Shown piece by piece: positions 35,737 through 52,402 of a stretch of DNA of 64,000 nt. The first letter of the stretch is position 1; every line of letters starts with the position of its first letter. A program made the translations under genes and the position numbers. The notes below the pieces were generated by a model. The model saw only the letters and a program-made list of their open reading frames with translations, was not told the origin of the DNA and did not search any database. Location: IMG/VR virus record IMGVR_UViG_3300021376_000010. The stretch is one strand, 5' to 3'. The stretch is from a virus.

Positions 35737-36813
35737 TTAAGAAAGTGCGATTGCCATTACAATTGCTCTTGTATCAACATACTTTTTATTGGCAGCATCC
35801 AAATCAGAAGTTGCAGTTCCAACATTTATAACTTTATTATTTAGTGCATTGATTGTTGAACCAACACTTAAAGAGCCTCCTATTACAGCACCATCATTAA
35901 TTGAGATGCTTTCTGATAAAGATAAATTTGCAATATCATTTGATATTGTTAAATTTAAATTTTTATTTGCTGATAATGTTCTAGCAACTCCAACTGGACT
36001 TTGATTACTTCTAAATCTTATAGTAGAAGAAACGTTTGTCGGAGTATTTCCAGTTAGATTAGTAGCATCTAATGAAGCATTTATAGAAGTTGCGGTAATT
36101 ATTCCAACAACATTTAAATTTTGACCTATAGATGCTGAACCATTAACAGTTAAATTTGAAAAGGTATTTGGTGGGAGTCCTTCCTCTACTGATTTTCCAA
36201 ATACAGTAAAAGATACTCTAGAGTTATCAGATGAAGAATAAACTAATGTTTGTCCATTTGATAATTTTAAATTAGTTCTTACGTAGGATTCATTTGGTGA
36301 AACTAGTTCATCATATTCTACGTACTGCGAACTATTAAAATCTAATGCAGATGAAGTTGCAATTCCCAATCTTACTTTAGAATTTAAAGATCCAAGATTG
36401 CAAGCAACTACTGTTACTTCAACTGACCTTCCAGAAGGTGCTGTATATAAAGCAAGTCTTTTATTTTTTGTAGATATTTCAGAGTTTAAAATTATAGAAT
36501 CTGTTGTATCTGTATATTCTTCACCATACAAAAGAAAGTTTGTATTTAATGAAGATGATTGTATAATTAAACTCTGTCCATTTCCAAAATAAATATTTTC
36601 AGATTCATATGTTTCTCCTCTCTCTAATACTGTAGAGGCAATATAGTTCAAATCAATAGAATTTGTAGAAATACCTACTTTAATTCTTACTGGTTCAAAA
36701 TTTTTATGTGAGATGGAAATTTTTCCATCTACTAAAATACCAGACGAAGAGGTATATAATATAGTATTTTTATTTGGAACTGGTATTGAAGACGATAAAA
36801 GGCCAAAAGCCAT
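35737..36813 (-). CDS. Fibre/adaptor-like virion protein
   Basis: Two tandem ~100-aa domains similar to ORF 48488-48808; C-terminal DAANKKYVD...MAIALS fibre motif. Confidence 0.65.
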   Translation of the reverse strand: MAFGLLSSSIPVPNKNTILYTSSSGILVDGKISISHKNFEPVRIKVGISTNSIDLNYIASTVLERGETYESENIYFGNGQSLIIQSSSLNTNFLLYGEEYTDTTDSIILNSEISTKNKRLALYTAPSGRSVEVTVVACNLGSLNSKVRLGIATSSALDFNSSQYVEYDELVSPNESYVRTNLKLSNGQTLVYSSSDNSRVSFTVFGKSVEEGLPPNTFSNLTVNGSASIGQNLNVVGIITATSINASLDATNLTGNTPTNVSSTIRFRSNQSPVGVARTLSANKNLNLTISNDIANLSLSESISINDGAVIGGSLSVGSTINALNNKVINVGTATSDLDAANKKYVDTRAIVMAIALS

Positions 36814-36835
36814 AATCTACAACTTAACTTTTAAT

Positions 36836-36843
36836 TATTTATA
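36836..36843 (-). promoter_or_regulatory. Late promoter for 36813 and downstream structural genes
   Basis: TATAAATA; overlaps a plus-strand TATAAT (36840-36845). Confidence 0.75.
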
Positions 36844-36854
36844 ATTCACTTATT

Positions 36855-37640
36855 ATGATTATTCTTACAGGGCATTCTGGATTTATTGGGAAGAAATTTC
36901 TTGAAAAAATAAATCAACCAATTATTAAGGTTGAAAAGGATGATTCGTTTAAATTCCTATCCTCCTTTACTGATTGGGATAAGGTAAAATTAATCTTGCA
37001 TCAAGGAGCAATTTCATCGACGACCGAACGCAATATTTCTACTTTACACCACCATAATGTTGCATTTACTCTGATGTTGTTTGATTATGCCATTCAACAC
37101 AAAATTCCAGTAAAGTTTGCATCATCTGCATCAGTCTATGGAAATACTTTGGGTACTATTAATCCATTGAATCATTATGCAATTACTAAATTGCAAATTG
37201 ATTATTTTATCCAAGACAATATTGATAAATTTTCTTCTATTCAATCTTTTAGGTATTTTAATGTATATGGTCAAGGAGAAGACCATAAAGGAGACCAAGC
37301 ATCACCAATATCAAAGTTCACTAAACAGATTAAAGAAACTGGTAAACTTAAACTATTTGAAGGTTCTGATAAATTTTTGAGGGATTTTATATGTGTTGAT
37401 GATGTGGTTGATATTGTTATGAATAGTAATATTCCTTCTGGAATTTATGATTTAGGAACTGGCAACCCAATTTCATTTCAAGAAGTTGCAGAATTAGTCA
37501 TAAAAAAAGAAGGAGGTGAGATTGAACTCATCCCCTTCCCAGAACATCTTAATGGCAAATATCAAGATTACACTAAAGCAAATATGCAATGGATTGACAA
37601 ATATAAATTTACTACTGTTGAAGAGTATCTCCTTCGATAA
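36855..37640 (+). CDS. hldD: ADP-L-glycero-D-manno-heptose 6-epimerase-like SDR (HldD/RfaD-like)
   Basis: GHSGFIG, HQGAISSTTE, ASSASVYG, YAITK (YxxxK), FRYFNVYG, RDFI.VDD. The only credible plus-strand gene in the window. Confidence 0.85.
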   Translation: MIILTGHSGFIGKKFLEKINQPIIKVEKDDSFKFLSSFTDWDKVKLILHQGAISSTTERNISTLHHHNVAFTLMLFDYAIQHKIPVKFASSASVYGNTLGTINPLNHYAITKLQIDYFIQDNIDKFSSIQSFRYFNVYGQGEDHKGDQASPISKFTKQIKETGKLKLFEGSDKFLRDFICVDDVVDIVMNSNIPSGIYDLGTGNPISFQEVAELVIKKEGGEIELIPFPEHLNGKYQDYTKANMQWIDKYKFTTVEEYLLR

Positions 37641-37977
37641 CTCTAATACTATCTTCATCAAAATGCTCTGTAGAGAATTCAAACAATTCAGTATCTTCTA
37701 GAGCATACATCCTATGTCTAAGTCCTACAGGAACATGGAATTTATCCCCTTTCTTTAGGACTCTTTTTTGTGCTAATTCAATATCATCAGTCTCTCCATA
37801 AAATAATATTAATTTTCCAGACTGAATATAAAATGTTTCATCTTTTACTTTATGGTAATGCCAAGAACATTTTCCTCCTTTTGCAAAATAAAGAAGTTTT
37901 CCGCAGTACTTATCGCAGTTTACAATCCACTTTTCAAATCCCCATCCTTTGGGAACAAATTTAATTGAAGAAGTCAT
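37612..37977 (-). CDS. Cupin-fold sugar isomerase-like protein
   Basis: KGWG.E, SWHYHKVKDETFY, HRMYA cupin metal motifs. Start approximate (37977 or 37983). Confidence 0.75.
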   Translation of the reverse strand: MTSSIKFVPKGWGFEKWIVNCDKYCGKLLYFAKGGKCSWHYHKVKDETFYIQSGKLILFYGETDDIELAQKRVLKKGDKFHVPVGLRHRMYALEDTELFEFSTEHFDEDSIRVIEGDTLQQ

Positions 37978-38293
37978 TAGCATTCATTCCTTTGTCATCT
38001 ATGTATATATCTCCACTTGGTTTCCCAAGTATTAGTTCATGGTATCTACAACCCCATATCTCTAGTTGCATCTTAGTTAAATTATAAAATTTTTGAATAG
38101 CTTTATCACTATTATCTTCATATCTTCCCATACCACGAGCAGAAAAATATTTAATTCTATGCCCCTCATCAAATAACGAATTAATTTTTTTTATTCTTTC
38201 TGGGATGGGAGTACTTCCTTCATACTTACAAGAAGAACAATCTCCATTAGTACAAATAGTACCATCAATGTCTATTACATATGTTGTTAACAT
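37961..38293 (-). CDS. Cap-less HAD phosphatase (possible GmhB analogue)
   Basis: DIDGT, SARG, GKP...YIDDK. Confidence 0.8.
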   Translation of the reverse strand: MLTTYVIDIDGTICTNGDCSSCKYEGSTPIPERIKKINSLFDEGHRIKYFSARGMGRYEDNSDKAIQKFYNLTKMQLEIWGCRYHELILGKPSGDIYIDDKGMNANDFFN

Positions 38294-39029
38294 CTTTTTG
38301 ATTTAATACGTAAGTTCCTTGGTTTTGAATTGCTATAGATGCTGCTCTGTTTGCTAATGCTATTGACCTGTTTATGTTATTAGTTTTTAAATATCCATAT
38401 GTCAATGCAGCAAGAAAAGTATCCCCAGCACCAACAACATCATATACATTAACCTTTTCTGCTGGGTAATGAGTGTCTTTATAATAGCATCCCTCAGAAC
38501 CCTTCGTAACAATTAGATTAGAATATTCGTAATTATTTTCTAATTTTTCATATTCAATGTGATTGATTTTAATAAAGCAATTTTCTTTGTTGGGCAAAAC
38601 AGTTTTTTTACTATCTATGAATACTGGAATGCTAGATGATTCTGCAATTTCGAATAATTTCTTAGTAGTTATGTATCCTTTGTTGTAATCTGATATTACA
38701 ATTGCATCAAAATTGGACATACTTATTGGGAGAAGCAAAGGTTTTATTGGTTCCTCGTTATCAACTCTAAGTAATTGTTGATTTGATTTTTCATCTATAA
38801 ATCTAGTTTTAACTATTTTTTCAGAATTAGTTAAAAAAGTGACATCTATATCAAATGATTGGAGATTAAAGCAAACATTTGCTGCCATGCCTGCTTTAGT
38901 TTCTATTTTTGAATAGTTCATTACTGGAACTGGTGCTTCGGGATTTAGCCTTTCGCATTTTCCATAAACATATTCATCTTCACAACTATCCCCTATCAAT
39001 AATACTTTGAATGATTTTTGTTGTGGCAT
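38265..39029 (-). CDS. PfkB-family heptose-7-phosphate kinase (HldA / RfaE kinase domain)
   Basis: RLNPEAPVPV, GMAANV, KTRF, QLLRVD, SDYNKG, DVVGAGDT. Likely ATG at 39029. Confidence 0.88.
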   Translation of the reverse strand: MPQQKSFKVLLIGDSCEDEYVYGKCERLNPEAPVPVMNYSKIETKAGMAANVCFNLQSFDIDVTFLTNSEKIVKTRFIDEKSNQQLLRVDNEEPIKPLLLPISMSNFDAIVISDYNKGYITTKKLFEIAESSSIPVFIDSKKTVLPNKENCFIKINHIEYEKLENNYEYSNLIVTKGSEGCYYKDTHYPAEKVNVYDVVGAGDTFLAALTYGYLKTNNINRSIALANRAASIAIQNQGTYVLNQKDVNNICNRH

Positions 39030-39387
39030 AATCTCCAATCCTATCAAAGAATATTAGTTTGGCAGCATAATAAGAACCTATAACGGATTTGCCTTTCCAA
39101 TCAGAACCTACAACCATTATATCTGGTTTAAAAGATTTTATCAATCCTTCCAGTTCTTCATCGCAGGAAAAAAATCTTACCTCATCTACTGCTTTTAAAT
39201 TTTCTAAGAAAAATTTTCTTTCTTCTTGACTATGTATAGGTCTTGTTGGACCCTTCTTTTCCTTTACTCTTTCATCAGTGTCAATACCTACACACAAATA
39301 GTCACCAAGACTTTTTGCATAGTTCAAAAGTTCAAGGTGACCTCTATGTAGAATATCAAATGTTCCGTTTACAAAAACTGTTTTCAT
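38986..39387 (-). CDS. Heptose-1-phosphate nucleotidyltransferase (HldC / RfaE domain II-like)
   Basis: NGTFDILHRGH (HxGH), D..V...KG..RP, C-terminal YATTKII. Confidence 0.85.
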   Translation of the reverse strand: MKTVFVNGTFDILHRGHLELLNYAKSLGDYLCVGIDTDERVKEKKGPTRPIHSQEERKFFLENLKAVDEVRFFSCDEELEGLIKSFKPDIMVVGSDWKGKSVIGSYYAAKLIFFDRIGDYATTKIIQSIIDRG

Positions 39388-41096
39388 TTATTTGGAAAAT
39401 ATATAATTTTTTTTATTTCTGGTAGATACAAATATTCAATTTCACTGTTTCTCATAGTTTTAAATGCATCATCTATATTTTCTACCATTGTATCACCAGC
39501 AAGATTGAATGAAGTATTAAAAAGTATAGGAACTTTAGTTAATTCATAAAACTCTGATATAAGATTATAGTAATTTTTATTTTGTTCTTTTTTGAGAGTT
39601 TGAATTCTACATGTTCCATCAACATGAGTAATTGCTGGAATTTTATCTTGCTTTTCTTTCAATACATCAACAGCATACATCATATAGGGACTCTCATCAA
39701 GTCTATCCATATCAAACCAATCTGATGCATGTTCTAATAAGACAGTTCCAGCAAAAGGTCTAAAATACTCTCTTCTTTTTACTTTATTTACAATATCTTT
39801 TCCATTAGAAACTCTAGGGTCAAATAATATTGAACGATTCCCTAATGCTCTAGGACCTGATTCAGACTTTCCTTGTGCAATTGCAACAATGTTTCCTTGG
39901 ACCAAAAGGTTTGCCACATCTTTAGGTGTTACTTTGTATTCAAATTCATTATTTGAAAGATTATATTGATATGTTAAACTTTGTCCCAAGTAGATATTAT
40001 CATATTTTAAATTTGAATTTGGATTTACTTTTTGTATTAATTCAAAAGCAGCACCTAAAGAAATACCAGAATCTGAAGATACTGGTTCTACAAAAAGATT
40101 AACATCTTTTGGTAAAGATTTTAATAGTTTATAATTTGCTACACAGTTTAAAGCACATCCTCCTGTTAAAATTAAATTTCTAGAATTTGAAAGTGATAAT
40201 GCTTTTTTGCATAGATTTATTAGATAATCTTCATATTCATTTTGTATTTTATATGCAAGGTTTTGTCTTCTTCTTTCTAGTTCTTTATTACCATAATTAG
40301 CAGTCCCAGATAAAATCTTAATATCATCAGAGCACCAATGTGAATCGGATGCTTCAATATAATCATATCCTTTTAAAATTATTCCAATATTTTCTACATT
40401 ATGATAATTAATTATTCCACATCTTTCAAATAATCCACCATCTTTTGTTAATATTGATTTTATATTTGAGTCTTCTTGTCCATATGGGGCAAGACCCATA
40501 GTTTTTCCACATTCTAAACTACCCCATCCCAACCATTCCGTAACTGCCGAATAAACCATTCCAGCACCAATAACTTTTTGTTTTTTTACATAGTTTGGTA
40601 CTAATGTTTTTCTTTTATTTGTGACTTCCTCATTCGGCATTCCAAAAATTGATTGTTGCAAAATTTTTAAGGCACAATCTTTTTTTGCTTCAAAAATAGT
40701 TTCATTTTCTTTTCCATAATCATAATCTGCTCCTGCCCCATCAATGACAACAATTGTAGCATCATCAAAATTTGAATGCTTATAAGCACAATGTGCATGT
40801 AGATGGTGATGAGGAGATGGAGTAGAATAGTTTAAAACGACTATTCCACAAACATACTGAAGATATTTTACATATACTGTTGGGTCTGTATTAAAATCCC
40901 AAAGGTAAGTAAAGCAACAATAATCAATAACTTTAGTATATTCTTTTACTAAAGATAATCCATGAAGAGGAAATTTATCATTCTTTATATGAGTTAATCT
41001 CTCTTCTTCAAGATGAAGAACAATTTCATCATCTTTAAATAAAGTTATTGATGCATCATGATGAATATTGAATGATAAAATCCACATAGTCATCAT
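39384..41096 (-). CDS. CmcH/NodU/TobZ-family O-carbamoyltransferase (copy 2)
   Basis: HHDAS, EEER, HHHLHA, DGAG, GKTMGLAPYG, GGCALNC, ESGPRALGNRS, RPFA, HVDGTCRIQT, NTSFN. Confidence 0.92.
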   Translation of the reverse strand: MMTMWILSFNIHHDASITLFKDDEIVLHLEEERLTHIKNDKFPLHGLSLVKEYTKVIDYCCFTYLWDFNTDPTVYVKYLQYVCGIVVLNYSTPSPHHHLHAHCAYKHSNFDDATIVVIDGAGADYDYGKENETIFEAKKDCALKILQQSIFGMPNEEVTNKRKTLVPNYVKKQKVIGAGMVYSAVTEWLGWGSLECGKTMGLAPYGQEDSNIKSILTKDGGLFERCGIINYHNVENIGIILKGYDYIEASDSHWCSDDIKILSGTANYGNKELERRRQNLAYKIQNEYEDYLINLCKKALSLSNSRNLILTGGCALNCVANYKLLKSLPKDVNLFVEPVSSDSGISLGAAFELIQKVNPNSNLKYDNIYLGQSLTYQYNLSNNEFEYKVTPKDVANLLVQGNIVAIAQGKSESGPRALGNRSILFDPRVSNGKDIVNKVKRREYFRPFAGTVLLEHASDWFDMDRLDESPYMMYAVDVLKEKQDKIPAITHVDGTCRIQTLKKEQNKNYYNLISEFYELTKVPILFNTSFNLAGDTMVENIDDAFKTMRNSEIEYLYLPEIKKIIYFPNK

Positions 41097-41098
41097 GT

Positions 41099-42781
41099 TT
41101 AATTGGGAATATAAACAAGTTTTTGAATTTCTGGTAGGTACATATATTCAATATCACTCTGTTTTAAAGTATTAACACCATCTTCAACAGTTTCAACTAG
41201 AGGATCACCACCAAGATTGAAACTAGTATTGAACAGAATTGGAACTTCACTTAACTTCTCAAAAGCATCAATGAGATTATAATAATGTTGATTTTGTTCA
41301 GGAGTTACAGTCTGAATGCGGCAAGTTCCATCAACGTGAATGACCGAAGGAATTTTATCTTCAACACCATCTTGACACTTTACTGCATACATCATGTGTG
41401 GAGTTTCATCACGACCAGTTAGGTCAAACCAATCATGTACACATTCTTTCTTGATAGTACATGCAAATGGACGGAACCATTCACGACGTTTTACTGTATT
41501 TACGATATCTTTACCGTCTTTAATAGTTGGATCAAACAAGATAGAACGGTTGCCCAAAGCACGAGGACCACCCTCAGAACGACCTTGGTACATAGTAACA
41601 ATATTTCCTTCACGGATTAGTTTCGCAACTTCATCATATGAAGTATCAGTTACTTCAAGACCATCTAGAGCATCTTCATAGGTATCAGGGTTGTATTGAG
41701 GACCATAATAAACAGAAGCTTGTTTTAGAGGAGTTTTGTTTGATGTTACTTTATGCCAAACATATTTTGCACCTCCAATTGATGTTCCACCATCATGGGA
41801 AATTGGTTCACAATAGATATTCAAATCTGGGAACTCTTTCCAATACTTGTAATTGGCAACACAGTTTAGGCCATATCCACCACAGATAACAATATTTTTC
41901 TCTCCAGTTTCTTCATGTGCTTTACGAATCAGTTCGACCATTCTATCCGAAGTTGCTTCTTGAATAGCATATGCCATGTCCTTTTGAATTTCTGTATACT
42001 CATTTCTTTTATGATTTTCTACATCATTCATCAAAACTTCATATCTTCCAACATTTATTTTTGCAGCATTTGGATATGTGGGGATAATTACTTCTCTGTT
42101 TCCCCATCCATTAGTGAAGAATTTAGGAAGTGTGTCATTAGGTTTTCCGTAAGGGGCAAGACCCATTAGTTTACCTGCTTCAATAGCAGGGAATCCACAA
42201 TATTCAGTGACTGCTTCATACATTTTTGTATGACCAGGATACTCAGTAATAAAAACTCCATCACTTACTTGATTGCATCCAATTGGTGCTTTTGTTCCTA
42301 AGTGTTTATAAACTACTTCAAAATTGTTTGGATATGATGCTTGGAAAATAGTTTCAAATTCAAATACAACATCATCCACACCCTCAAATTTGAGAAAACT
42401 TCCAGCACCATCAGCAATTACACAAGCAGCAGTTTCAAATCCTGAGTTATAAAAACCACAAGCAGCGTGCATTTCGTGATGGACTGTATCAATGAAATGA
42501 ACTTCAAAGTCAAATTTTTTCTTTGCAAGTTTTCTTACCCATCCATGATACAGGTCTTCTCCAGTCCAATCCAATTGTGGACCATGCCTGTGGGTATGGC
42601 AAACAACCAAATGGTCAATATGGTCTACGTAATCAAATACCTTTTCAAGCCCCAATAGTGGAGAACCATCATATTTAAATTTGGACAATCTTTCTTCTTC
42701 TAGATAGAAAATAACTTCACCATCTTTTAAAAGAGTTGTGCTTCCATTATGTCCACGAGCACATGCTGCAATAATAGTCAT
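41099..42781 (-). CDS. CmcH/NodU/TobZ-family O-carbamoyltransferase (copy 1)
   Basis: GHNGS, EEERLS, HHEMHA, DGAG, GKLMGLAPYG, EGGPRALGNRS, RPFA, HVDGTCRIQT, NTSFN. Confidence 0.93.
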   Translation of the reverse strand: MTIIAACARGHNGSTTLLKDGEVIFYLEEERLSKFKYDGSPLLGLEKVFDYVDHIDHLVVCHTHRHGPQLDWTGEDLYHGWVRKLAKKKFDFEVHFIDTVHHEMHAACGFYNSGFETAACVIADGAGSFLKFEGVDDVVFEFETIFQASYPNNFEVVYKHLGTKAPIGCNQVSDGVFITEYPGHTKMYEAVTEYCGFPAIEAGKLMGLAPYGKPNDTLPKFFTNGWGNREVIIPTYPNAAKINVGRYEVLMNDVENHKRNEYTEIQKDMAYAIQEATSDRMVELIRKAHEETGEKNIVICGGYGLNCVANYKYWKEFPDLNIYCEPISHDGGTSIGGAKYVWHKVTSNKTPLKQASVYYGPQYNPDTYEDALDGLEVTDTSYDEVAKLIREGNIVTMYQGRSEGGPRALGNRSILFDPTIKDGKDIVNTVKRREWFRPFACTIKKECVHDWFDLTGRDETPHMMYAVKCQDGVEDKIPSVIHVDGTCRIQTVTPEQNQHYYNLIDAFEKLSEVPILFNTSFNLGGDPLVETVEDGVNTLKQSDIEYMYLPEIQKLVYIPN

Positions 42782-42791
42782 AGTTTACTCC

Positions 42792-43952
42792 TCAAACTGT
42801 TTTCATTGTGTCCATAAATCCTAATGATTTTTTATTTCCATTAGATTTGATGCCATTCTCTTCTAGGACTGCATCTATTGAATTAAGTGCTTTTTTTGTT
42901 TGCTCCGATGATGCTCCAGTAAGTTGAGGTGCTTGTTCCAACTTTGCGGGAGGCATACCACAAGATGCTTGTTGCTGTTCCATTGTTGGAAGAACAACAG
43001 AATCAGTCTTCTTTACATAATATCTATTCATCAATTTATCGACCGACTGAAGAATGACCGACTCAACTTTGTCATTCATTGCCATAATACCATCATTTGT
43101 TCTGCCACTTACTTCATCCATTGTAATACGAATTGGATCGTAGATTCTTAGACCTTCACCCATATCAAGAACTTCAAATTTATCACAATTTGGATAACTG
43201 ATATTTTCTTTACAGGTTGCCCCAACTATAACTACAGCAGGAATATCCAAAGAATATGCCATATGCTGACCAACAGAATCGCACCCAATGAAAAGATCTG
43301 ACTCTGCAATAATACCTGCCCATTGTCGTAAGTCAATACCTCTTGGGCAAGCAACTGGGTCTTTACAACCTTCTTTCTGGAAGTCTAGTTCAACTTCCCC
43401 CATATAAATTACGGAATATTTCTTTTGTAGTTTTTTTATGATTGATACAACGTTAGTAAATTCAAAACTTCTACCACTAGAATCAGTAATGAAATTGCCC
43501 ATCACCTGAGTTCCACGTCCAAATGGTTGGAAGACTACAACTTTTTCTTTCTTTGTTTTTTGCTTAACTTCCTCTACTACAAATTTACCATTAATCATTT
43601 CTTGTCTAGAAAGTTTAATGGTCGGTTTTTGAAGTTCTCGAACGCCTTTATCATTGATTTGAATATCAAAAGCCTGAGATAGGTTACACTTTTGATTATA
43701 GTATTCCCAGATACGATATGGTTCTGTTGTAACGATGTCCATATCCTTCAGTTTATCTCTGAAGAGATTTTTGTGCCAATGGTCGTAAACTTTTTGGAAA
43801 AGAGTTGGGTGTCCTTTGAAGAAATCTGTGCCTCCTTCGCAGACAATCAAAAAGTCTTTATCTGGGTTTTCTTCTTGGTATTTTTCAAATGCTGGTATCG
43901 AGCAAATCACTCTGCCTGCCCCACCATTTACAAAAAATGCTTTTGATCTCAT
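42792..43952 (-). CDS. GT9-like (heptosyltransferase-like) glycosyltransferase
   Basis: N-terminal GGAGRVICSIPA, VVVFQPFG, and GT9-type FIGCDSVGQHMAYSLDIPAVVIVG motif. Confidence 0.75.
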   Translation of the reverse strand: MRSKAFFVNGGAGRVICSIPAFEKYQEENPDKDFLIVCEGGTDFFKGHPTLFQKVYDHWHKNLFRDKLKDMDIVTTEPYRIWEYYNQKCNLSQAFDIQINDKGVRELQKPTIKLSRQEMINGKFVVEEVKQKTKKEKVVVFQPFGRGTQVMGNFITDSSGRSFEFTNVVSIIKKLQKKYSVIYMGEVELDFQKEGCKDPVACPRGIDLRQWAGIIAESDLFIGCDSVGQHMAYSLDIPAVVIVGATCKENISYPNCDKFEVLDMGEGLRIYDPIRITMDEVSGRTNDGIMAMNDKVESVILQSVDKLMNRYYVKKTDSVVLPTMEQQQASCGMPPAKLEQAPQLTGASSEQTKKALNSIDAVLEENGIKSNGNKKSLGFMDTMKTV

Positions 43953-43995
43953 TTTATCGCCTCAAACAAATGATGATGTTTTAATTATACAATTT

Positions 43996-44002
43996 TATTT
44001 AT
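43996..44002 (-). promoter_or_regulatory. Late-promoter core upstream of the sugar-modification operon
   Basis: ATAAATA directly downstream of the terminator; TATAAT hexamers are also present nearby. Confidence 0.55.
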
Positions 44003-44007
44003 TATAC

Positions 44008-44036
44008 AAAAAAGGGAGGGGTTTCCTCCCTCCTTT
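44008..44036 (-). terminator. Intrinsic terminator after the tail-assembly chaperone
   Basis: GGAGGG-aggaaac-CCCTCC followed by a T run. Confidence 0.7.
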
Positions 44037-44066
44037 ATTCTAACAGTTTAAAATTAAAACAGTCAA

Positions 44067-44945
44067 TTATTCGTTTTCTGATTCTTCTGTATTTTCTTCT
44101 TCTGCTGAATCACTAATTTGTTGTGGTTCTATAGTTGAGATATCAATTTCTTTTCCATCTCTATATGGTTTACCATCAACATACTCAACTGGACCTTCTG
44201 GTTTTGGAGGTGCTTCTGTTCCTGTTTTGTTATCAATACCAAATGCATTTCCATTTGATGCACTCCAATTATCCAATCCCATTGGATTCGATGGGAATGG
44301 AACCATCCAAGGAGTATCTAAATAATCTGCATATTTAACTGTAACATTATCAAGAGCAGTTAAATATGCTGCCCATTTTGTCTTTTGTGTGGAAGTAAAT
44401 CCAGTTGTTTCTGCTTTTTTTTCTAGTTTTTTGATTGACTCTAATGCATACAAAAGTTCTTCTTTTGTAATATGTGGTTTTTTCCATGGGAATGGTTTTT
44501 TCCATTCTTTAGTTTCGAAATCAAATTCAACCTCTCCCACTTCAATTGTTTTATTTGGATATGGTGGATTTGGTCTAGTATAAAATGGTTCTGTCTCTCC
44601 ATCCAAAGTATACGTCTTATGTGGTATTTCGTCTATAGATGGACCTATTGAATTACCAACAACTGCTGCTAAAAGTAAGGGTTCTTCTTCTACGTCAATC
44701 AAGGCATAATCATATCCTAAACCAGAGAAAGTATCTGCAGCTGCGTCATTTTCTTCTCTAGTTCTATCATCCTCATATAACATCCAACCCAACATACTAT
44801 TAATTTTTTTGGTATCTTTAAGTATCATAACATAAACTTTATCTGGACCTTCATAAGTCCATTCAGCAGTCAGACCAAGTTTATTTGTTTGTAGCAAATA
44901 ATCGTCTGGTATATTATATGTGAATTTTTTAGTCGTTTTTGCCAT
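44067..44945 (-). CDS. Tail-fibre assembly chaperone-like protein
   Basis: W..Y...L.......PWMVPFPSNP pattern of tail-assembly chaperones; directly downstream of the Gly/Cys-rich genes. Confidence 0.55.
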   Translation of the reverse strand: MAKTTKKFTYNIPDDYLLQTNKLGLTAEWTYEGPDKVYVMILKDTKKINSMLGWMLYEDDRTREENDAAADTFSGLGYDYALIDVEEEPLLLAAVVGNSIGPSIDEIPHKTYTLDGETEPFYTRPNPPYPNKTIEVGEVEFDFETKEWKKPFPWKKPHITKEELLYALESIKKLEKKAETTGFTSTQKTKWAAYLTALDNVTVKYADYLDTPWMVPFPSNPMGLDNWSASNGNAFGIDNKTGTEAPPKPEGPVEYVDGKPYRDGKEIDISTIEPQQISDSAEEENTEESENE

Positions 44946-44987
44946 AATACTTAACCTTTCTCCTGTTTTTTATTTATTTAAATCTAA

Positions 44988-45947
44988 TTAAACATATCTT
45001 ACGGTTACACGTACTGCACCTGCCCAACCAGGATTTCCACAGCAACAACCACCCCCACATACAGTTGCAGAAGCACCACCCAAACCAGGAACATAATTGT
45101 GGTCAATATAACCACCAAAACCCAAATTACCTGCTGCCCATGATTGATTCCAATTTCCGCAAGTAGAATTTTCACATTGGTGTGATGAGACCCAACCACC
45201 TTTTTGGTTTACTAATCCTCCTGGATAAGCAATGTGGTACATGTTCCAGCAACGGTTTTGGTGACAGAATAAACCATAAGCACCAGGAACACCAAATGCC
45301 CCGCCATCTGCACCAAAATAACGAGCACAGCAACCAACACATGAAGTATTGAGACCCACAACGTTACCAGTTCCACCAAATCCCTCAGAAGCTCCTATTG
45401 CGGTCTTCCAATAGCACTTATTACCACAGAACTGAGTAATACAGAAAGAGCAACCTCCCCATCCACCTTCAGCATAAAAACCAGTAAGTCCAGTTCCAGT
45501 TACTGTAGTGCATTCACCTCTTAAACCAGTATCATTAGGAACTTTACATGTTGGTGAACCAATTCTAAAGACATATGGTGTTCCAGATGCTACACCAACA
45601 ACGGTTTTGAATGCATAAGCACCCGATCCTCCAGGAATTCCGTAAGCACAGCAGCAAGCACCTGCTCCACCGCCACCAGCACCCCAAATTTCAAAGGTAA
45701 TTGCAGTTGTACCTGCTCCAGGATATGAAGGAACTTTCCAGCAACAATATACAAAATTGTTAAAACCCATCGTAAAGTCACCTGCTGGTGCTTGACAACA
45801 AGTGGTTTCGTAACTACCGTCGGTATTACCGCACATGTGTGCCATGAAATAAGTTACTTGACCCTCTCGAAGTCTTCCAATTCCACCTGAATGTATTCCT
45901 GTAAAATTTGGTTCTGCTGAACCCAACAGAGTTCTAAGATTTGCCAT
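44988..45947 (-). CDS. Cys/Gly-rich fibre-tip (adhesin-like) protein, paralog C
   Basis: About 25 Cys in 319 aa (manual count); FEIWGAGGGGAGACCC, PGGSGAYA, AEGG, GADGG, VRVT. Confidence 0.7.
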   Translation of the reverse strand: MANLRTLLGSAEPNFTGIHSGGIGRLREGQVTYFMAHMCGNTDGSYETTCCQAPAGDFTMGFNNFVYCCWKVPSYPGAGTTAITFEIWGAGGGGAGACCCAYGIPGGSGAYAFKTVVGVASGTPYVFRIGSPTCKVPNDTGLRGECTTVTGTGLTGFYAEGGWGGCSFCITQFCGNKCYWKTAIGASEGFGGTGNVVGLNTSCVGCCARYFGADGGAFGVPGAYGLFCHQNRCWNMYHIAYPGGLVNQKGGWVSSHQCENSTCGNWNQSWAAGNLGFGGYIDHNYVPGLGGASATVCGGGCCCGNPGWAGAVRVTVRYV

Positions 45948-45972
45948 TTTTAATATTTCCTCTTAAAGGTAT

Positions 45973-46935
45973 TTATCTATAGGTGATTCTAATTAGACCA
46001 GCTGTTCCAGGTGCAGAAATACAGCAACCACCCGCACATGTAGTTACAGAAGGATGCCCTGAACCTCTCATTCCCATACTACAGTTACTATTTCCAGGCC
46101 ATTCACCTAACCAACATTGTGCTCTTTCATTGCAGCAAGCATTTCCTGGATTTCTGTGAATAATATATCTTACTTCTTTATCACGGACTCCACCTGGTTG
46201 AGGAATACCAAGTCTTACGAAACAGTTATTTCCACAAATACAATCTACACGGAACCATCCCATTCTTCCAGGAACACCAAAATCTGCTCCATAATAGCAA
46301 GCACAATCACAAGCTCTACAACTACCAGGAACTGGATCTAATGAATAGCAACCCAATGAACCTCTTGGTGTTGTTCCAGTTGTTCCTCCAGGACCATATG
46401 TTCCAGTTAAATTAGCACCATGCTCATTATAGAAAATAAAGCAACATGTTCTACCTGGCATTCCGCCTTCAGCACAGAAGTTAGTGAGACCACATCCAGT
46501 TATCCATGTTTTGCATCCAGTAGCACCTAAGCAGGATGATGAGCAAGTTGTTGTTGGACCAAGGCACCATAGATAACAAAGACCACCTAAGGTTTCTAGT
46601 CCCATGTCTCTTGCACAAAGTGTTTTCATTGCATATGCACCTGAACCACTTGGAGTTCCTTGCATACAGCAACATGATCCTGCACCACCTCCTCCACCAC
46701 CCCAAATGTGGAATTGGACGGTAGTTACTCCAGGATAGACACAAAATCCACCACACCACTGCCTGTAACTGGTATCACAGGAATTAAGCCAACAGCCTCC
46801 ACCAAAAAATGTATCAAAACCATCTACAAGAGTATTGCCCCATCCATTTCCCCATTGGGTGGAACGGAATCCGCACACTCTTTGTTGGAGTTCAACTTGA
46901 TTTTCTGTATTTAATAATTCTCTTAATCTAGCCAT
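45973..46935 (-). CDS. Cys/Gly-rich fibre-tip (adhesin-like) protein, paralog B
   Basis: True start MARLRELL at ATG 46935 after AGGAG; about 33 Cys in 320 aa; IWGGGGGGAGSCCC, GSGAYA, FCAEGG, IRITY. Confidence 0.7.
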   Translation of the reverse strand: MARLRELLNTENQVELQQRVCGFRSTQWGNGWGNTLVDGFDTFFGGGCWLNSCDTSYRQWCGGFCVYPGVTTVQFHIWGGGGGGAGSCCCMQGTPSGSGAYAMKTLCARDMGLETLGGLCYLWCLGPTTTCSSSCLGATGCKTWITGCGLTNFCAEGGMPGRTCCFIFYNEHGANLTGTYGPGGTTGTTPRGSLGCYSLDPVPGSCRACDCACYYGADFGVPGRMGWFRVDCICGNNCFVRLGIPQPGGVRDKEVRYIIHRNPGNACCNERAQCWLGEWPGNSNCSMGMRGSGHPSVTTCAGGCCISAPGTAGLIRITYR

Positions 46936-46948
46936 TTGAAATCTCCTA

Positions 46949-48088
46949 TTAACCGTAAGTGATACGAACCATTCCAGAATGTCCTGGACCACCACAATAG
47001 CAGTTTCCACCTTCTGAAGAAGCTGATCTTCCACCCAACCCAACAATACCTTCTTCTGCACGTAGAGAACTATGTCCAAAGTAATCTGAGAATCTATACT
47101 GGGAAGAATCTGCACCAGAAAGATTCATAGATTGATATCTATATGGAAGATAACCACCTCTAGTATTAATTAGTCCACCAGGGAATGGATGATACTGAAC
47201 AATCATGCACCAGTCCATTGCTTGATTGCATGGTGAACCTAACAGTCCAGGAAGACCTCTTGCTCCACCATCAGCACCAAAGAAGGGAGCACAGTAAGCA
47301 CATTGATTAGTACAAATACCACCAAAGCAAGGATTGAGAGCATGACCATAAGAAACTCTACGTCCATTTGACCCAAAGGTAGTTCCAGCACCAATTAAAT
47401 CATATTGGAGTCTTGTTACGTCTTGATATTCAAGTGGATAATGTCCAATACCACCACCAGGAGTAAAGCAAGAAAATCCACAATTTCCCCAATGACCACC
47501 ACAAGCTTCACACATGTGTCCACCAAAAGGCATTGCTTGGCTTTCATTACATGAGTGACAATAATCACATATGCAATACATTTCAAAAGTGCTTTCTCTG
47601 TTCATACAGTTTGAACAGAATGATGCACCACCAAAACCACCTTCCGCACAGAAGTTATTCAATCCATATCCAACTACAAATGACTTACATCCACGAGAAC
47701 CCCACTGGGCTGGGTTGCAACAAGAAGCAGATGCGGCACATATTTCGTATGATTGTCCACCTAAATCAAATCCAGTGCAAATGCACTTATATGCATAAGC
47801 ACCCGATCCTCCAGGAGTTCCCCACATGCAACAGCAAGTGCCAGGTCCTCCACCACCTCCTCCCCAAATTTCAAACTTGATAAAGGTAGTTCCCGCTGGT
47901 GGTCTCCAAACATAGCATTCAAAATATCTATGTCTATTTACAGCACAATGGGTTCTGAATTGTACTTGATGATACTCAGAACCAGGAAAACTAATAGGTG
48001 TTGTTGGGACCGTACTGATTCCTGTTGTTTGGAATGACGCAATTTGTTGTTGGTCAGTATAACTAATTAAATCTCTTAAATTTGCCAT
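46949..48088 (-). CDS. Cys/Gly-rich fibre-tip (adhesin-like) protein, paralog A
   Basis: About 30 Cys in 379 aa; FEIWGGGGGGPGTCCC, PGGSGAYA, FCAEGG, GADGG, VRITY. Confidence 0.7.
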   Translation of the reverse strand: MANLRDLISYTDQQQIASFQTTGISTVPTTPISFPGSEYHQVQFRTHCAVNRHRYFECYVWRPPAGTTFIKFEIWGGGGGGPGTCCCMWGTPGGSGAYAYKCICTGFDLGGQSYEICAASASCCNPAQWGSRGCKSFVVGYGLNNFCAEGGFGGASFCSNCMNRESTFEMYCICDYCHSCNESQAMPFGGHMCEACGGHWGNCGFSCFTPGGGIGHYPLEYQDVTRLQYDLIGAGTTFGSNGRRVSYGHALNPCFGGICTNQCAYCAPFFGADGGARGLPGLLGSPCNQAMDWCMIVQYHPFPGGLINTRGGYLPYRYQSMNLSGADSSQYRFSDYFGHSSLRAEEGIVGLGGRSASSEGGNCYCGGPGHSGMVRITYG

Positions 48089-48808: not shown

Positions 48809-48868
48809 TTAAATCTCCCAATTTTTTTTGATTCAATCTTATATGCAAATATTTATAATGTACAATAA

Positions 48869-51800
48869 TCAAGAAGTAGCAACCCAATAGGTAAATGGTC
48901 TGCTCTTAATCAATGTGCCATCAACGTATGCTTTTACTGCTGCTTGTGTAGGAACTTTTTCGTTGCTATTTTGGGAAAGTGTAACATCAGTAGAGAATTC
49001 ATTAATTTGAGCTCCCAACTGAGCACCAATAGAACCAAGTCTCAAGGATGTTAGACCAGAAAGGTCGAATGCAGATGCGTTCAATGTTGCTGCACCTGTT
49101 GCCTGGTTAACACGGAAGTACTTACCTACACGGAAGTTACCATTTTGGTCAGTAGAAACATAGTAAACACGACCAGGATAATCTTCTGTTACTTCTTTAG
49201 ATGGAATTGGATCTACGGTTGGTACACCAGGCCAATTGGTTGTTGATGTTCCACCAGTACCAATCTGCAAGAAGTCGTGACCAGTCAATCTAACTTGTGA
49301 ATACAAGTATCTAATTCTGAATGATTGCTCATCAAAAGTTTTATTTGCTTTTTCTTCTGCAAGAATCAATGTAGTTCTTCCTGTAGTATCAATTCCAATG
49401 GAAGTAACTTTCATGAATTCGTTATCAATCTTAATGAAGTTATCAGTTGAGAATCCACTTACGCTATTTACTCTTACAAATGTTTGTACAGGAGTTTGGT
49501 CTTTGATTACCTGAGTTGATGCAATAGTATTTGCAACTCCAATTGCTCGGAATACTGTTCCATTTGAATAACCAGTTGCGATTCCAGCACCTTCTTGTGC
49601 TCTTAAAACTGTCATTGCAATTGAAGAATCCAAGTTCACAATCTTCATTAACTCATTTGCTGGTGTAAGAACAAATCCATTCTGGAAGAATCCAGCAGTT
49701 GAACTTACAACGATTTGTGTATCAGATGTACCGATTGGGGAAGCAACCGTTGCTGTAACATTAGTAAAAGGATAATTTCTAATATTATTATTTGTTCCAA
49801 AATGTTTTGCGGCAGTTGTGTTCAACTGTGCTCTATTTACGTTAACATTTCCTCTTCCATCAGGAGCAAGGAAACTTACATTCTGAATAACATAAGTAAA
49901 TGGATCTGCACCAGTAATAGTTGTTGCAGCAGTTCCAATTGAACCACCATTTCCACTACCTGTTACAAATTCAATACTTCCTCCAGTCTGTAAATTATTT
50001 TGAAGTCCTCTTACAACAATGGTAAATCCGCTTTGTCCTCTATTTGCATCAGTATTATTTGTCAAATATGCTTGAGTTCCAGATGTTTGTCCTGTGATGA
50101 GTTCATTTTGTCTGAAACCTGAACCACTTGGTCCAGAAGTAACAACACTATAATAAAGTGCAGCAATTGATGTTTGAACAGAAGTTAGTTCTCCAACTGC
50201 ACCAGAAGTTGCTCCAATCACTCTCTCTCCCTGAATAAATCCAGGTGCAGTAATTGTCTCAATATTATACTTTAACTGAAGACCTTCTACTGTTCCACTC
50301 AAGAATGCTTCATCGGTGTTATATCCAGAACTTACAATACCATAGTTACCCCATGAACTATTTCCTGCAAGAGAACGAATTCTTCCTCCACGAGTTGAAC
50401 AGTAACTAACATGTGCATAATAAGTAAAGCAGGAAACCATTTCTGCTGCAGCATTATTGGTAACCCAGAAACCAACACCGTTATCATGAATATTTGTCCA
50501 AGAGTCAAAAACGATTGATTTATTAGATCTTTGTGGAGTATTATCGTATTGTTTGTGTACTTTTCCATCGACTACTGCTCCAACACCACCACTTGAAAAC
50601 GCAGAACAGTTAGAAATGTATGGTGATTTTGTAATTGGTGAATTTGGATTCAGTTTTACAAATACACCACGAACTGTTGCATTATTTAAATCTCTATCAC
50701 TAGCAGTAAATGTTACTGGAGTAGATGAAACTGTTTGTGCAGTATCTACTTCTACTTGTGTTGCGCTTATGTAAGTTACAACTTTAGTTCCAACTGTAAT
50801 TCCAGTTCCACTAATGACGGTTCCAACCAAATCTGGTTCCATTTCTGCGGTTGAATTGGTTAAAATTGTCCCAGAAATTGAAGCAGTTGCAGTTTTGAGA
50901 GTACCAGCAGGAACAAATCCCGTCAAACCTTCCATAACAATGTCTTTAAGCATAGTTCTATCACTAAGCATAAACATTGTTGATTGGGAATTTGACAAAG
51001 TTACTGCATTATCTACAGTAATATCAGAGGCACCATTTTCCCAAGTATCAACACCTGATATCCATAAACCACCAGTAAGTGGTTCGATTTCTACTTTTTT
51101 CTGAGAGAAGTTGAAATCTAAAATTCTAGCAGTTTTAGTTCCAGCACCATTAGCAATAGTTGCACCATACTGCATAGCAGTTGATGGGGCAGAGTTTAGA
51201 GTCAATACTTGGTGATTTGCATTACCTGCTGCTGGTACAATTTTTGTAGTTCTTAGGTTATCTCCTACAATGGTTACGTTTGCTGGAACAGTAATTGGAA
51301 GTTGTTCTTCATATGTTCCTGCTTTTACATAAATTGTTGCTGGACCAGTTACAATACCACAAGCATGTTTAATTGTAGCAAAAGCACGGTTAATATTCTT
51401 ACCATCGTTACCGTCACTACCTTCTTCTGCTACATAGAAAACAGGATAAGTTACATTATTTGTTTCCCAAACTGGTACTCCTGCTGGAGAAACAGTCAAT
51501 ACTTTTCCATTAGTTCCAATTGGAAGAGCTGCTGGACCTGCACCAGATTGGTAAATAATATCACCAGTTGCAGAAAGAACGTTAGTTGCAGAACCTTGAG
51601 TTAATGGATTCCAATATGTACCAAGAGCATCTGTGGCAGGGTCATTATTAAAGTTAGTTGATGCTACACTAACATAACTATTGGAATTTCTATAAATTGT
51701 ATCACCTTGTTCATATGTGGTGACAGATGACCAAGCACCTTTCCACTCAAATCCTTTAATAATCAAGTCCCACTTATTAGGTACTTGAACTGGATTGCTG

Positions 51801-52402
51801 GTCATTCCCGCACCAACTTCTTCCTTGGCAACGTAAGAATAACCACCAAAACGAATTACCTCACCTGGTAAGTAAGAGGTAGTAGTGGAATATGCACCAA
51901 TAAAGTCAAATCCAGTGGAAAGAGTATCCCAATCAGAAGTATATGCACTTGGTGCTTTATTAGTATTTAATGTTTTAGAAACATAATTGTTTCCACCATA
52001 TAGAACAACATCTCCTACTTGATATGCTGTTCCTGAGTTCCAAGTTCCTTCGTAATTGAAACCTCCAAAATATGGAGTTAGATAAGAAGAATTGAAATTA
52101 GAGGTTGAAGCAAAAGAGGTAACTACTCTGTATTGAGTGTTACCAAATTTTACTAAATCATTGACCTTGTAAAAAGTTGCTGGTGTCCAGTCACCTCTAT
52201 TTGCAATACCTTCAACGTGCAAAGACCACTTTGCTAGATCCGTTGAATACCAGTTTGTTTCTGATGCTACAGAAGTGTGATTCTGGGTACAGACATAAGT
52301 ATTCGCACCGAACTTAACGATATCATCAATAACATAGTCTGTACTTGTTGTCCAAGCACCTCTCCAGTTAAATTTTAGTCTTCCTAATCTAAAATCAGCC
52401 AT
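48869..52402 (-). CDS. Tail fibre/spike with CBM5/12-like repeats and a beta-helix-like domain
   Basis: Five G.W....Y..xD.V..G...Y repeats; FYVA..G.D...G....AFATI...YVKAGTY; C-terminal VPTQAAVKAYVD. Confidence 0.75.
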   Translation of the reverse strand: MADFRLGRLKFNWRGAWTTSTDYVIDDIVKFGANTYVCTQNHTSVASETNWYSTDLAKWSLHVEGIANRGDWTPATFYKVNDLVKFGNTQYRVVTSFASTSNFNSSYLTPYFGGFNYEGTWNSGTAYQVGDVVLYGGNNYVSKTLNTNKAPSAYTSDWDTLSTGFDFIGAYSTTTSYLPGEVIRFGGYSYVAKEEVGAGMTSNPVQVPNKWDLIIKGFEWKGAWSSVTTYEQGDTIYRNSNSYVSVASTNFNNDPATDALGTYWNPLTQGSATNVLSATGDIIYQSGAGPAALPIGTNGKVLTVSPAGVPVWETNNVTYPVFYVAEEGSDGNDGKNINRAFATIKHACGIVTGPATIYVKAGTYEEQLPITVPANVTIVGDNLRTTKIVPAAGNANHQVLTLNSAPSTAMQYGATIANGAGTKTARILDFNFSQKKVEIEPLTGGLWISGVDTWENGASDITVDNAVTLSNSQSTMFMLSDRTMLKDIVMEGLTGFVPAGTLKTATASISGTILTNSTAEMEPDLVGTVISGTGITVGTKVVTYISATQVEVDTAQTVSSTPVTFTASDRDLNNATVRGVFVKLNPNSPITKSPYISNCSAFSSGGVGAVVDGKVHKQYDNTPQRSNKSIVFDSWTNIHDNGVGFWVTNNAAAEMVSCFTYYAHVSYCSTRGGRIRSLAGNSSWGNYGIVSSGYNTDEAFLSGTVEGLQLKYNIETITAPGFIQGERVIGATSGAVGELTSVQTSIAALYYSVVTSGPSGSGFRQNELITGQTSGTQAYLTNNTDANRGQSGFTIVVRGLQNNLQTGGSIEFVTGSGNGGSIGTAATTITGADPFTYVIQNVSFLAPDGRGNVNVNRAQLNTTAAKHFGTNNNIRNYPFTNVTATVASPIGTSDTQIVVSSTAGFFQNGFVLTPANELMKIVNLDSSIAMTVLRAQEGAGIATGYSNGTVFRAIGVANTIASTQVIKDQTPVQTFVRVNSVSGFSTDNFIKIDNEFMKVTSIGIDTTGRTTLILAEEKANKTFDEQSFRIRYLYSQVRLTGHDFLQIGTGGTSTTNWPGVPTVDPIPSKEVTEDYPGRVYYVSTDQNGNFRVGKYFRVNQATGAATLNASAFDLSGLTSLRLGSIGAQLGAQINEFSTDVTLSQNSNEKVPTQAAVKAYVDGTLIKSRPFTYWVATS

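Follow-up and report, generated by a model that had tools for sequence, protein, structure and literature searches.

In the cyanophage Pam3 the receptor-binding fibre gp24 combines a docking helix with a TNF-like and a glycine-rich domain and is folded by a Tfa-like chaperone, gp25, encoded in the adjacent gene (PMC9608196, of which an excerpt is considered here). A related arrangement is present in the virus record IMGVR_UViG_3300021376_000010, of which a stretch of 64,000 nucleotides (the window) was analysed. On its minus strand the gene of a long fibre protein (1177 aa) is followed by those of two small fibre-like proteins (~110 aa), three Cys/Gly-rich paralogs, a chaperone-like protein (292 aa), a GT9-like glycosyltransferase, two carbamoyltransferases, HldC, HldA, a HAD protein (110 aa) and a cupin (123 aa); a plus-strand HldD gene comes next and a second, minus-strand fibre gene (358 aa) comes last (Table 1). 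As far as the excerpt describes Pam3, the likeness to gp24/gp25 and to the adhesin gp38 of phage S16, likewise a glycine-rich receptor-binding tip, comprises a predicted TNF-like plus glycine-rich fold, a GGGGxGG-type motif and a Tfa-like chaperone gene directly downstream, and the short conserved N-terminus of the window proteins could dock as in Pam3 gp24 and S16 gp38. Unlike Pam3 and S16, the window has three conserved paralogs instead of one, with 8-10% Cys and a near-invariant CCC motif. It also has a GT9-like and a carbamoyltransferase gene attached to the module, none of which is noted for Pam3 in that excerpt (PMC9608196). The reading that we favour, tentatively because the acceptor is inferred, is a late, cytoplasmic carbamoyl-heptosylation of the fibre-tip proteins.

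GT9-related enzymes that act on adhesins are TibC and Aah, which O-heptosylate TibA and AIDA-I, respectively, in the cytoplasm. The transferase of the window shares with them a GT9-type GT-B fold (TibC in a Foldseek search, 4e-8), the situation of a soluble enzyme beside a repetitive glycine-rich adhesin, and ADP-heptose as the likely donor. Its gene adjoins adhesin-like genes as in the TibC/Aah systems (43/43 and 62/63 loci, see below), with the adhesins as putative substrate. In contrast to TibC and Aah it has no sequence-level match in the PDB and belongs to a phage-only clade, and no Cys4 iron-finger pattern was seen among its invariant residues. We know of no carbamoyltransferases in the TibC and Aah systems, unlike the present module. 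Freeman and co-workers reportedly showed by experiment in 2023 that mycobacteriophage glycosyltransferases encoded beside structural genes modify virion proteins. On mycobacteriophage virion glycosylation an excerpt of PMC12801897 cites this work (Freeman 2023). Enzyme families, sugars and targets are different there (the targets being capsid and tail tube), and for the window module the modification is a prediction. By analogy, it could be akin both to adhesin glycosylation by GT9-type enzymes and to virion glycosylation by phage-encoded transferases. We know of no description of a heptosylated phage virion protein, and the present case would be the first, if true. No report of cyanophage fibre glycosylation was found in the literature.

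The genes themselves have figured for two decades among the cyanophage 'LPS genes' (LPS, lipopolysaccharide) of unknown use, and they are abundant: in a scan of IMG/VR, at least 584 stretches were found to code for a relative of the GT9-like protein. The 'LPS gene' clusters of P-SSM2 and S-SSM7 (T4-GC 302-308) and the 'secondary metabolite' cluster of S-SSM6a consist of orthologous genes in the same order as in the window. An alteration of LPS was proposed for them by Sullivan 2005 (PMC1079782) and 2010 (PMC3037559), and 'decoration of capsular polysaccharides' or a secondary metabolite by Iyer 2021 (PMC7824862). The view of the first-pass annotation that no function had been described for the linked arrangement thus has to be narrowed: LPS, capsule and metabolite roles had been proposed, but none of these studies linked the genes to fibre adhesins. 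Unlike in these studies, the genes are tied here to the Cys-rich adhesins and their chaperone, and a fixed core is split from a movable heptose cassette.

Linkage of the transferase genes to the adhesin genes

Hidden Markov models (HMMs) were built from the window and from isolates and were then mapped onto IMG/VR loci. Seen from the GT9-like gene, Cys-rich genes are nearby in all 43 loci with enough flanking sequence; seen from the Cys-rich genes, the GT9-like gene is present in 62 of 63 loci, including distant clades in which the Cys-rich HMM scores are only 30-60 bits. Both scans share some contigs, and the counts therefore overlap and are not fully independent. A carbamoyltransferase gene is found in each of the 63 loci with at least 9 kb from the GT9-like start, and in the gene maps it adjoins the GT9-like gene or lies one open reading frame (ORF) away. 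Even where the GT9-like and carbamoyltransferase genes are inverted, in seven loci (L063, L065, L067, L076, L077, L080, L088), they still abut the adhesin and chaperone genes. Among eight complete isolate genomes, the GT9-like and Cys-rich families occur together in five (P-SSM2, S-SSM7, S-CAM1, S-CAM3, Sf-FS3) and are both absent from three (S-SM2, P-TIM68, S-T4). The full order from fibre to cupin with the reversed HldD gene was found in S-CAM3, S-CAM1, S-SSM7, P-SSM2 and Sf-FS3, of which four represent four separate genera; the record of Sf-FS3 carries no genus. Every related locus has an orthologous fibre gene at the start of the module.

The heptose cassette is less constant. Of 63 loci, 37 have it in the vicinity of the GT9-like gene, and in the other 26 it was not found within the fetched flank. 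In the clade of the window it is located directly 3' of the carbamoyltransferase genes, while in another clade it lies ~15 kb off in three contigs and was not found in one contig of 80 kb. The co-occurrence of Cys-rich, GT9, carbamoyltransferase and Hld genes suspected in the first-pass annotation was thus borne out for the GT9-like and carbamoyltransferase genes (43/43, 62/63 and 63/63) but not for the heptose genes, which are distributed in part independently (S-SM2, P-TIM68, S-T4; 26/63). Given the constant linkage of Cys-rich and GT9-like genes and the variable cassette, the fixed partnership is that of the adhesins and their chaperone with the GT9-like transferase and the carbamoyltransferase, and the heptose-supply genes are a movable accessory. 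A movable cassette makes sense because hosts may differ in their own supply: among 81 sampled host-family genomes, 16 encode an HldA-like kinase and 20 a GmhA-like protein, often within a few kb of each other where coordinates are listed, and most of the sampled picocyanobacteria are without the pathway. The 'stuffer DNA' idea of Sullivan 2010 was rejected, as gene order and many invariant residues are kept across hundreds of contigs.

The chromosome of Prochlorococcus sp. MIT 0603 has, in the stretch 291378-304151 (L175), an isolated HldD gene with no other cassette genes nearby; its HldA-like and GmhA-like genes are ~60 kb away. The 63% identity to phage HldD suggests gene exchange between phage and host.

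The Cys-rich proteins and their chaperone

The three paralogs contain 25-33 Cys (8-10%) and 17-21% Gly and have the N-terminus MA(N/R)LR.L(L/I) in common. For paralog 2 this requires a start at the ATG at 46935 and not at the GTG at 47115, which yields MARLRELL as in its siblings. Over 93 family members the consensus includes W-GGGGGG-x-G-x-CCC and a C-terminal G-x-V-x-I-T-Y, with a near-invariant CCC, and 45 of the 93 are matched by Pfam Gly_rich_2. A Foldseek search with an AlphaFold2 model of paralog 3 (mean predicted local distance difference test score, pLDDT, 79) gave the fibre of cyanophage Pam3 (7ypx) as the closest structure (8.8e-6), followed by a tail-tip protein of mycobacteriophage Bxb1 (5e-5) and by the TNF-like plus glycine-rich domains of ALK/LTK. 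Of the family of the 292-aa chaperone-like protein, 12 of 34 members match Pfam Phage_tail_APC (best 1.4e-9); the window's own copy gave no match. The first-pass annotation had called the Cys-rich proteins fibre-tip proteins and the gene behind them chaperone-like. Both labels are well supported, since the predicted fold is that of Pam3 gp24 and of the Bxb1 tail tip and a Tfa-type chaperone gene, backed by the Phage_tail_APC matches of its family and by its gene context, adjoins. As far as models can tell, the assignment of the long fibre, the two small fibre-like proteins, the three Cys/Gly-rich proteins and the chaperone to the receptor-binding end of the fibre is well supported, too.

The Cys-rich genes form a conserved trio in most lineages (window 44988-48088; L001, L002, L009-L174), in which positions 2 and 3 are orthologous among the window, S-CAM1 and S-CAM3 and all three carry the N-terminal MxxLRxLL tag. 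Because the TNF-like fold is trimeric, the trio may constitute a heterotrimeric tip rather than three alternative adhesins. An apparent confinement of the family to S-CAM1 and S-CAM3 in tblastn searches was discarded as an artefact of sensitivity or of the low-complexity filter; unfiltered BLASTP and HMM searches add S-SSM7, P-SSM2 and Sf-FS3. A complex prediction for paralog 3 and the GT9-like protein scored 0.00, which is no answer and is evidence neither way. We found no virion proteome in the literature for a phage that carries these genes; in Sullivan 2010 (PMC3037559) S-SM1 was analysed experimentally, and orthologues from the S-PM2 and Syn9 proteomes were marked.

The GT9-like glycosyltransferase

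The GT9 relationship of the transferase, already assumed in the first-pass annotation, is confirmed at the level of the fold: the top Foldseek matches of its AlphaFold2 model (pLDDT 75) are 3tov, WaaC (2gt1), WaaF (1psw) and TibC (4rb4), with E-values from 2e-10 to 5e-8. At the sequence level the relationship is faint. Pfam GT9 (PF01075) gives 16.5 bits, under its threshold of 22, with a match limited to residues 206-250, NCBIfam TIGR02201 gives 25.5 bits (cut-off 170), over both profiles only residues 206-266 are matched, and the family profile has no match among PDB sequences, so that the link was made by fold search and hhalign only. With WaaC and WaaF (CAZy GT9) the enzyme shares the fold and the C-terminal donor motif: in an hhalign alignment with E. 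coli WaaC, of low confidence, GCDSVGQH (D225, H230), invariant in 26 sequences of 59-94% identity over which invariance was scored, is placed on D261/H266. [quoted passage not shown] The Arg in question, the invariant Arg14, is placed opposite the catalytic Asp13 of WaaC with an alignment probability of only 8%, and the correspondence is thus tentative. It makes both the activity and the acceptor chemistry of the enzyme uncertain: catalysis might be arranged in another way, or the acceptor might be an unusual one, for example cysteine. Cysteines of the enzyme itself that are invariant or nearly so are C17, C38, C89 and C224, without CxxC pairs.

From the same residue one could argue that the GT9-like protein has lost its activity or taken on another role, such as that of a fibre assembly factor that binds sugar nucleotides, and that the heptose genes serve something unrelated. 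The Pfam score under threshold and the separability of the heptose genes from the GT9-like gene would agree with this. We consider it improbable, as the 26 sequences have an invariant donor motif, D-S-x-G-x-H, along with many further invariant positions, an active-looking carbamoyltransferase is always alongside, and the alignment at Arg14 is of low confidence. In TibC-type enzymes, moreover, the catalytic base is located elsewhere in the N-domain, and loss of an Asp13 equivalent therefore need not mean inactivity.

At the C-terminus of the GT9-like protein (window 42792-42830), the last ~55 residues are predicted to be disordered and are poorly conserved. A Gly-Phe pair (G378, F379), nine residues before the end, is nonetheless invariant in the 26 sequences and looks like a short docking motif for some partner. 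A sister clade (L067:10995-11915, L078:10987-11817) has an extra ORF of 276-306 aa without Pfam match between the GT9-like and carbamoyltransferase genes, and many distant loci have a second GT9-like gene 3' of the carbamoyltransferase gene.

Carbamoyltransferases and heptose enzymes

Both carbamoyltransferases consist of a Kae1-like N domain and a YrdC-like C domain and score far over the Pfam thresholds (Carbam_trans_C 194 and 201 bits, Carbam_trans_N 78 and 83 bits). They are 41% identical to each other, and relatives have one or two copies. Matches to 7xb6, TobZ, NovN and GdmN range from 1e-45 to 1e-51 (TobZ 5e-48) and bear out the prediction that these enzymes are of the kind that O-carbamoylates sugars and small molecules; the substrates of TobZ, NovN and GdmN are sugars and polyketides. 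The closest solved carbamoyltransferases, TobZ, NovN and GdmN, all tailor antibiotics, and the product of the module might accordingly be a soluble secondary metabolite, a carbamoylated heptoside or an aminoglycoside-like compound that acts as an antibiotic or signal during infection. This was proposed by Iyer et al. 2021 for the S-SSM6a cluster with its halogenase, 2-oxoglutarate (2OG) oxygenases and HemK-like methylase (PMC7824862), and S-SSM7 has the same gene set. The invariant core, however, is only the GT9-like transferase and the carbamoyltransferase, always beside adhesins, whereas halogenase and methylase are lineage-specific; the window has no aglycone-forming enzymes or exporter; and the position in the fibre module and the late-type motif would be left unexplained. 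We therefore give a metabolite only a slim chance.

For HldA, HldC and HldD the best NCBIfam matches are heptose enzymes, although with scores that stay under the equivalog cut-offs, and the E. coli counterparts are longer. The HldA-like protein, which probably starts at the ATG at 39029, has the PfkB C-terminal motif. The HldD-like protein has kept the motifs GxxGxxG, SSAS and YxxxK of E. coli HldD and has a 25-aa deletion. A complete heptose pathway, as claimed in the first-pass annotation, is not present in canonical form: the block contains neither a SIS-type GmhA nor a canonical GmhB. The 110-aa HAD protein belongs to the EcbF/BcbF capsule phosphatase family and is a candidate stand-in for GmhB. 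In the cupin, which always accompanies the heptose cassette, H42, H44, E49 and H90 are invariant and form an H-x-H...E...H metal site. Its family profile matches D-lyxose/D-mannose isomerases (~4e-6) and mannose-6-phosphate isomerase (1e-3), and 8 of 13 family members match Pfam Lyx_isomer. Judged by these matches the cupin is likely the GmhA substitute, a ketose-aldose isomerase, because the conversion of sedoheptulose-7-phosphate to manno-heptose-7-phosphate parallels the reaction of mannose-6-phosphate isomerase, on a sugar with one carbon more. It would then be a candidate non-orthologous replacement of GmhA.

Transcription signals

The late-promoter consensus reported for cyanomyoviruses is NATAAATA (PMC2984593). 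Between 35.5 and 53.5 kb (18 kb) the minus strand has nine matches to NATAAATA or CTAAATA; six of the nine are intergenic, 23-44 nt before start codons, and four of these six precede genes of the fibre module. Upstream of the GT9-like gene, the core TAAATA is present in 53% of 112 distinct upstream regions (17% of shuffled sequences), and 30 of the 112 relatives (27%; 0.6% of shuffled sequences) have a strict terminator where the window has its own. The block had been described as starting after a terminator with a late-promoter core. The motif itself is confirmed, and the neighbouring fibre genes carry it as well, but terminator and AATAAATA precede the GT9-like gene and thus head the sugar sub-block, not the whole of 36855-48088. 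Since relatives keep a terminator and, behind it, a TAAATA core, the sugar unit is probably a late transcription unit of its own. The 41-nt gap at 36814-36854 contains on the plus strand a sigma-70-like match that faces HldD (TCTACA, 18 nt spacer, TATAAT), so that the timing of HldD may not be that of the other cassette genes.

Two studies yielded RNA-library contigs over the genes of the fibre, the Cys-rich proteins, the chaperone, the GT9-like protein and carbamoyltransferase 1, a weak sign of transcription of the block, as DNA carry-over is possible. Among the contigs listed, parts of carbamoyltransferase 2 and of the Hld genes are uncovered and 44018-44062 is unbridged; nothing is drawn from these gaps, and assembled contigs can neither rank expression nor prove a transcript end. 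Time-course expression data for P-SSM2 were not found in the literature. DNA as the target of the modification was set aside, because the unit belongs to the fibre module, follows a late-type motif and comes without genes of nucleotide metabolism.

Possible function of the module

According to the mechanism that we propose, the separate late-motif unit would encode soluble enzymes that act in the cytoplasm during virion assembly. The cupin isomerase, HldA, the small HAD protein, HldC and HldD would convert sedoheptulose-7-phosphate to ADP-heptose, the GT9-fold enzyme would move the heptose onto a fibre protein, most simply the adjacent adhesins, and one or two TobZ/NodU-type enzymes would O-carbamoylate it. 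GT9-like transferase and carbamoyltransferase would be the fixed partners of the adhesins and the heptose-supply cassette an add-on. The GT9 fold, the conserved donor motif, the best matches to heptose-pathway enzymes and the carbamoyltransferases of the TobZ/NovN/GdmN type fit this chemistry. In its most specific form, the proposal says that fibre tips of widespread T4-like cyanophages are heptosylated and carbamoylated by a phage-specific GT9 enzyme with Arg for the catalytic Asp, at the end of an ADP-heptose pathway that starts with a cupin; this conjunction as a whole is doubtful. An enzyme with such an exchange could use an unusual acceptor, for instance an invariant cysteine (S-glycosylation). 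If the fibre tips are indeed modified, host range, stability or the evasion of grazing or immunity in a major aquatic phage group would hinge on a virus-made glycan. The module is present in the cultured phages P-SSM2, S-SSM7, S-CAM1 and S-CAM3 and is thus directly testable; E. coli makes ADP-heptose.

Several observations weigh against a modification of the fibre tips. Between the adhesin genes and the sugar unit there is a terminator, and HldD lies behind a sigma-70-like promoter match, not a late motif. In a distant lineage (L145), the 6 kb downstream of three Cys-rich genes and the chaperone gene contain no GT9-like gene. The heptose cassette of S-SM2, P-TIM68 and S-T4 is part of clusters with several glycosyltransferases close to hli genes, and neither Cys-rich nor GT9-like genes accompany it. 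Among the block genes SIS-type GmhA is absent, and SIS_2 was found in 0 of 5 complete cyanophage genomes with the cassette. None of the scores for Pfam GT9 and the NCBIfam Hld families reaches its curated cut-off, and Arg14 stands, tentatively, where WaaC has its catalytic Asp. Finally, linkage to an adhesin is equally expected of an enzyme that modifies the receptor.

The last point leads to the main rival, which we regard as unlikely on balance: a late modification of the host receptor or envelope, with carbamoyl-heptose placed on LPS, capsule or a glycoprotein receptor. It would block superinfection or the loss of progeny on infected cells and debris, and the enzymes would travel with the adhesin genes because a masking enzyme must match the receptor of the adhesin. 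Other phages have receptor-blocking genes beside the genes of receptor-binding proteins, for example llp of T5. For most characterised GT9 enzymes the substrate is an LPS core, the GT9-like protein has a basic N-terminal domain (pI, isoelectric point, 8.9), the clusters in S-SM2, P-TIM68 and S-T4 are of a polysaccharide type, and an action on the host surface is the published reading of these genes (PMC1079782, PMC3037559, Clokie 2010, PMC2984593, and PMC7824862). Cyanobacterial LPS, however, is reported to be without heptose and Kdo, the inner core that is the usual acceptor context of GT9 enzymes (PMC4515613). Moreover, the block encodes no membrane protein, with a predicted membrane helix in 0 of 14 block proteins (highest Kyte-Doolittle average over 19 residues 1.25), and no flippase, polymerase or ligase. 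The sugar unit has its late-promoter motif in common with the fibre genes, the hli-proximal sugar clusters are devoid of GT9-like and carbamoyltransferase genes, which occur together with Cys-rich genes, and the nearest Atlas clusters of the GT9-like family are all viral.

Gene map and origin of the window

All genes of the earlier list were recovered at the positions it had given (Table 1). The block is flanked by fibre genes on either side (48869-52402 and 35737-36813).

Table 1. Features of the fibre and sugar block, 35.7-52.4 kb of the window
Feature	Position	Strand	Evidence
Long tail-fibre protein, 1177 aa, first gene of module	48869..52402	-	phrog_9851 'tail fiber protein', 1470 bits; CBM_5_12 repeats
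TATAAATA motif 5' of SM1	48850-48857	-	
Small fibre-like protein SM1, 106 aa	48488..48808	-	fibre PHROGs; resembles internal segment of 358-aa fibre protein
Small fibre-like protein SM2, 112 aa	48119..48457	-	tail PHROGs; BLASTP match to residues 1386-1472 of S-SSM7 fibre
Cys/Gly-rich paralog 1, 379 aa, 30 Cys	46949..48088	-	phrog_4205 3e-58; Gly_rich_2 24.1 bits
Cys/Gly-rich paralog 2, 320 aa	45973..46935	-	phrog_4205 8e-56; N-terminus MARLRELL
Cys/Gly-rich paralog 3, 319 aa, GATAAATA upstream	44988..45947	-	AlphaFold2 model, pLDDT 79; Foldseek matches
Tail-fibre assembly chaperone-like protein, 292 aa, acidic, no Cys	44067..44945	-	phrog_9740
Intrinsic terminator 3' of chaperone gene	44015..44033	-	GC-rich hairpin, then T-run
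AATAAATA late-promoter-like motif, 44 nt 5' of GT9-like start codon	43996..44003	-	
GT9-fold glycosyltransferase, 386 aa	42792..43952	-	AlphaFold2/Foldseek
O-carbamoyltransferase 1, 560 aa	41099..42781	-	Carbam_trans_N + Carbam_trans_C
O-carbamoyltransferase 2, 570 aa	39384..41096	-	Carbam_trans_N + Carbam_trans_C
HldC-like heptose-1-phosphate adenylyltransferase, 133 aa	38986..39387	-	TIGR02199 rfaE_dom_II 3.6e-33, 114 bits (curated cut-off 181)
HldA-like heptose-7-phosphate kinase, 254 aa	38265..39029	-	TIGR02198 rfaE_dom_I 5.3e-48, 164 bits (cut-off 345)
Small cap-less HAD phosphatase, 110 aa	37961..38293	-	TIGR01689 capsule biosynthesis phosphatase 1.4e-7; PDB 9iqw 'capsule biosynthesis protein' 1.7e-8
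Metal-binding cupin, 123 aa	37612..37983	-	family profile, Pfam Lyx_isomer
HldD-like ADP-heptose 6-epimerase, 261 aa, convergent	36855..37640	+	TIGR02197 heptose_epim 1e-59
TATAAATA motif 5' of 358-aa fibre gene	36836-36843	-	
Second fibre protein, 358 aa, closes block	35737..36813	-	phrog_11338 'tail fiber protein' 1e-48

In S-SSM7 and Sf-FS3 the counterpart of SM2 forms the C-terminal end of the long fibre. The window as a whole represents the structural region of a T4-like (Kyanoviridae-type) cyanophage, with capsid and tail genes that are 72-78% identical at the DNA level to those of Synechococcus and Prochlorococcus myoviruses, and the IMG/VR contig IMGVR_UViG_3300008267_000040 (103.6 kb) is identical to it. 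Nearly complete window DNA recurs across many lake-water and freshwater metagenomes, whereas its closest cultured relatives are marine cyanophages; most probably, then, we are dealing with a freshwater relative of these isolates.

In S-SSM7 (L003 9314-20036) and Sf-FS3 (L005 9308-18589) the block is interleaved with genes for prolyl-4-hydroxylase-type and other 2OG-Fe(II) oxygenases, and that of S-SSM7 has in addition a tryptophan halogenase and a protein with a PF05175 methyltransferase domain. These interleaved enzymes could modify proteins, too.

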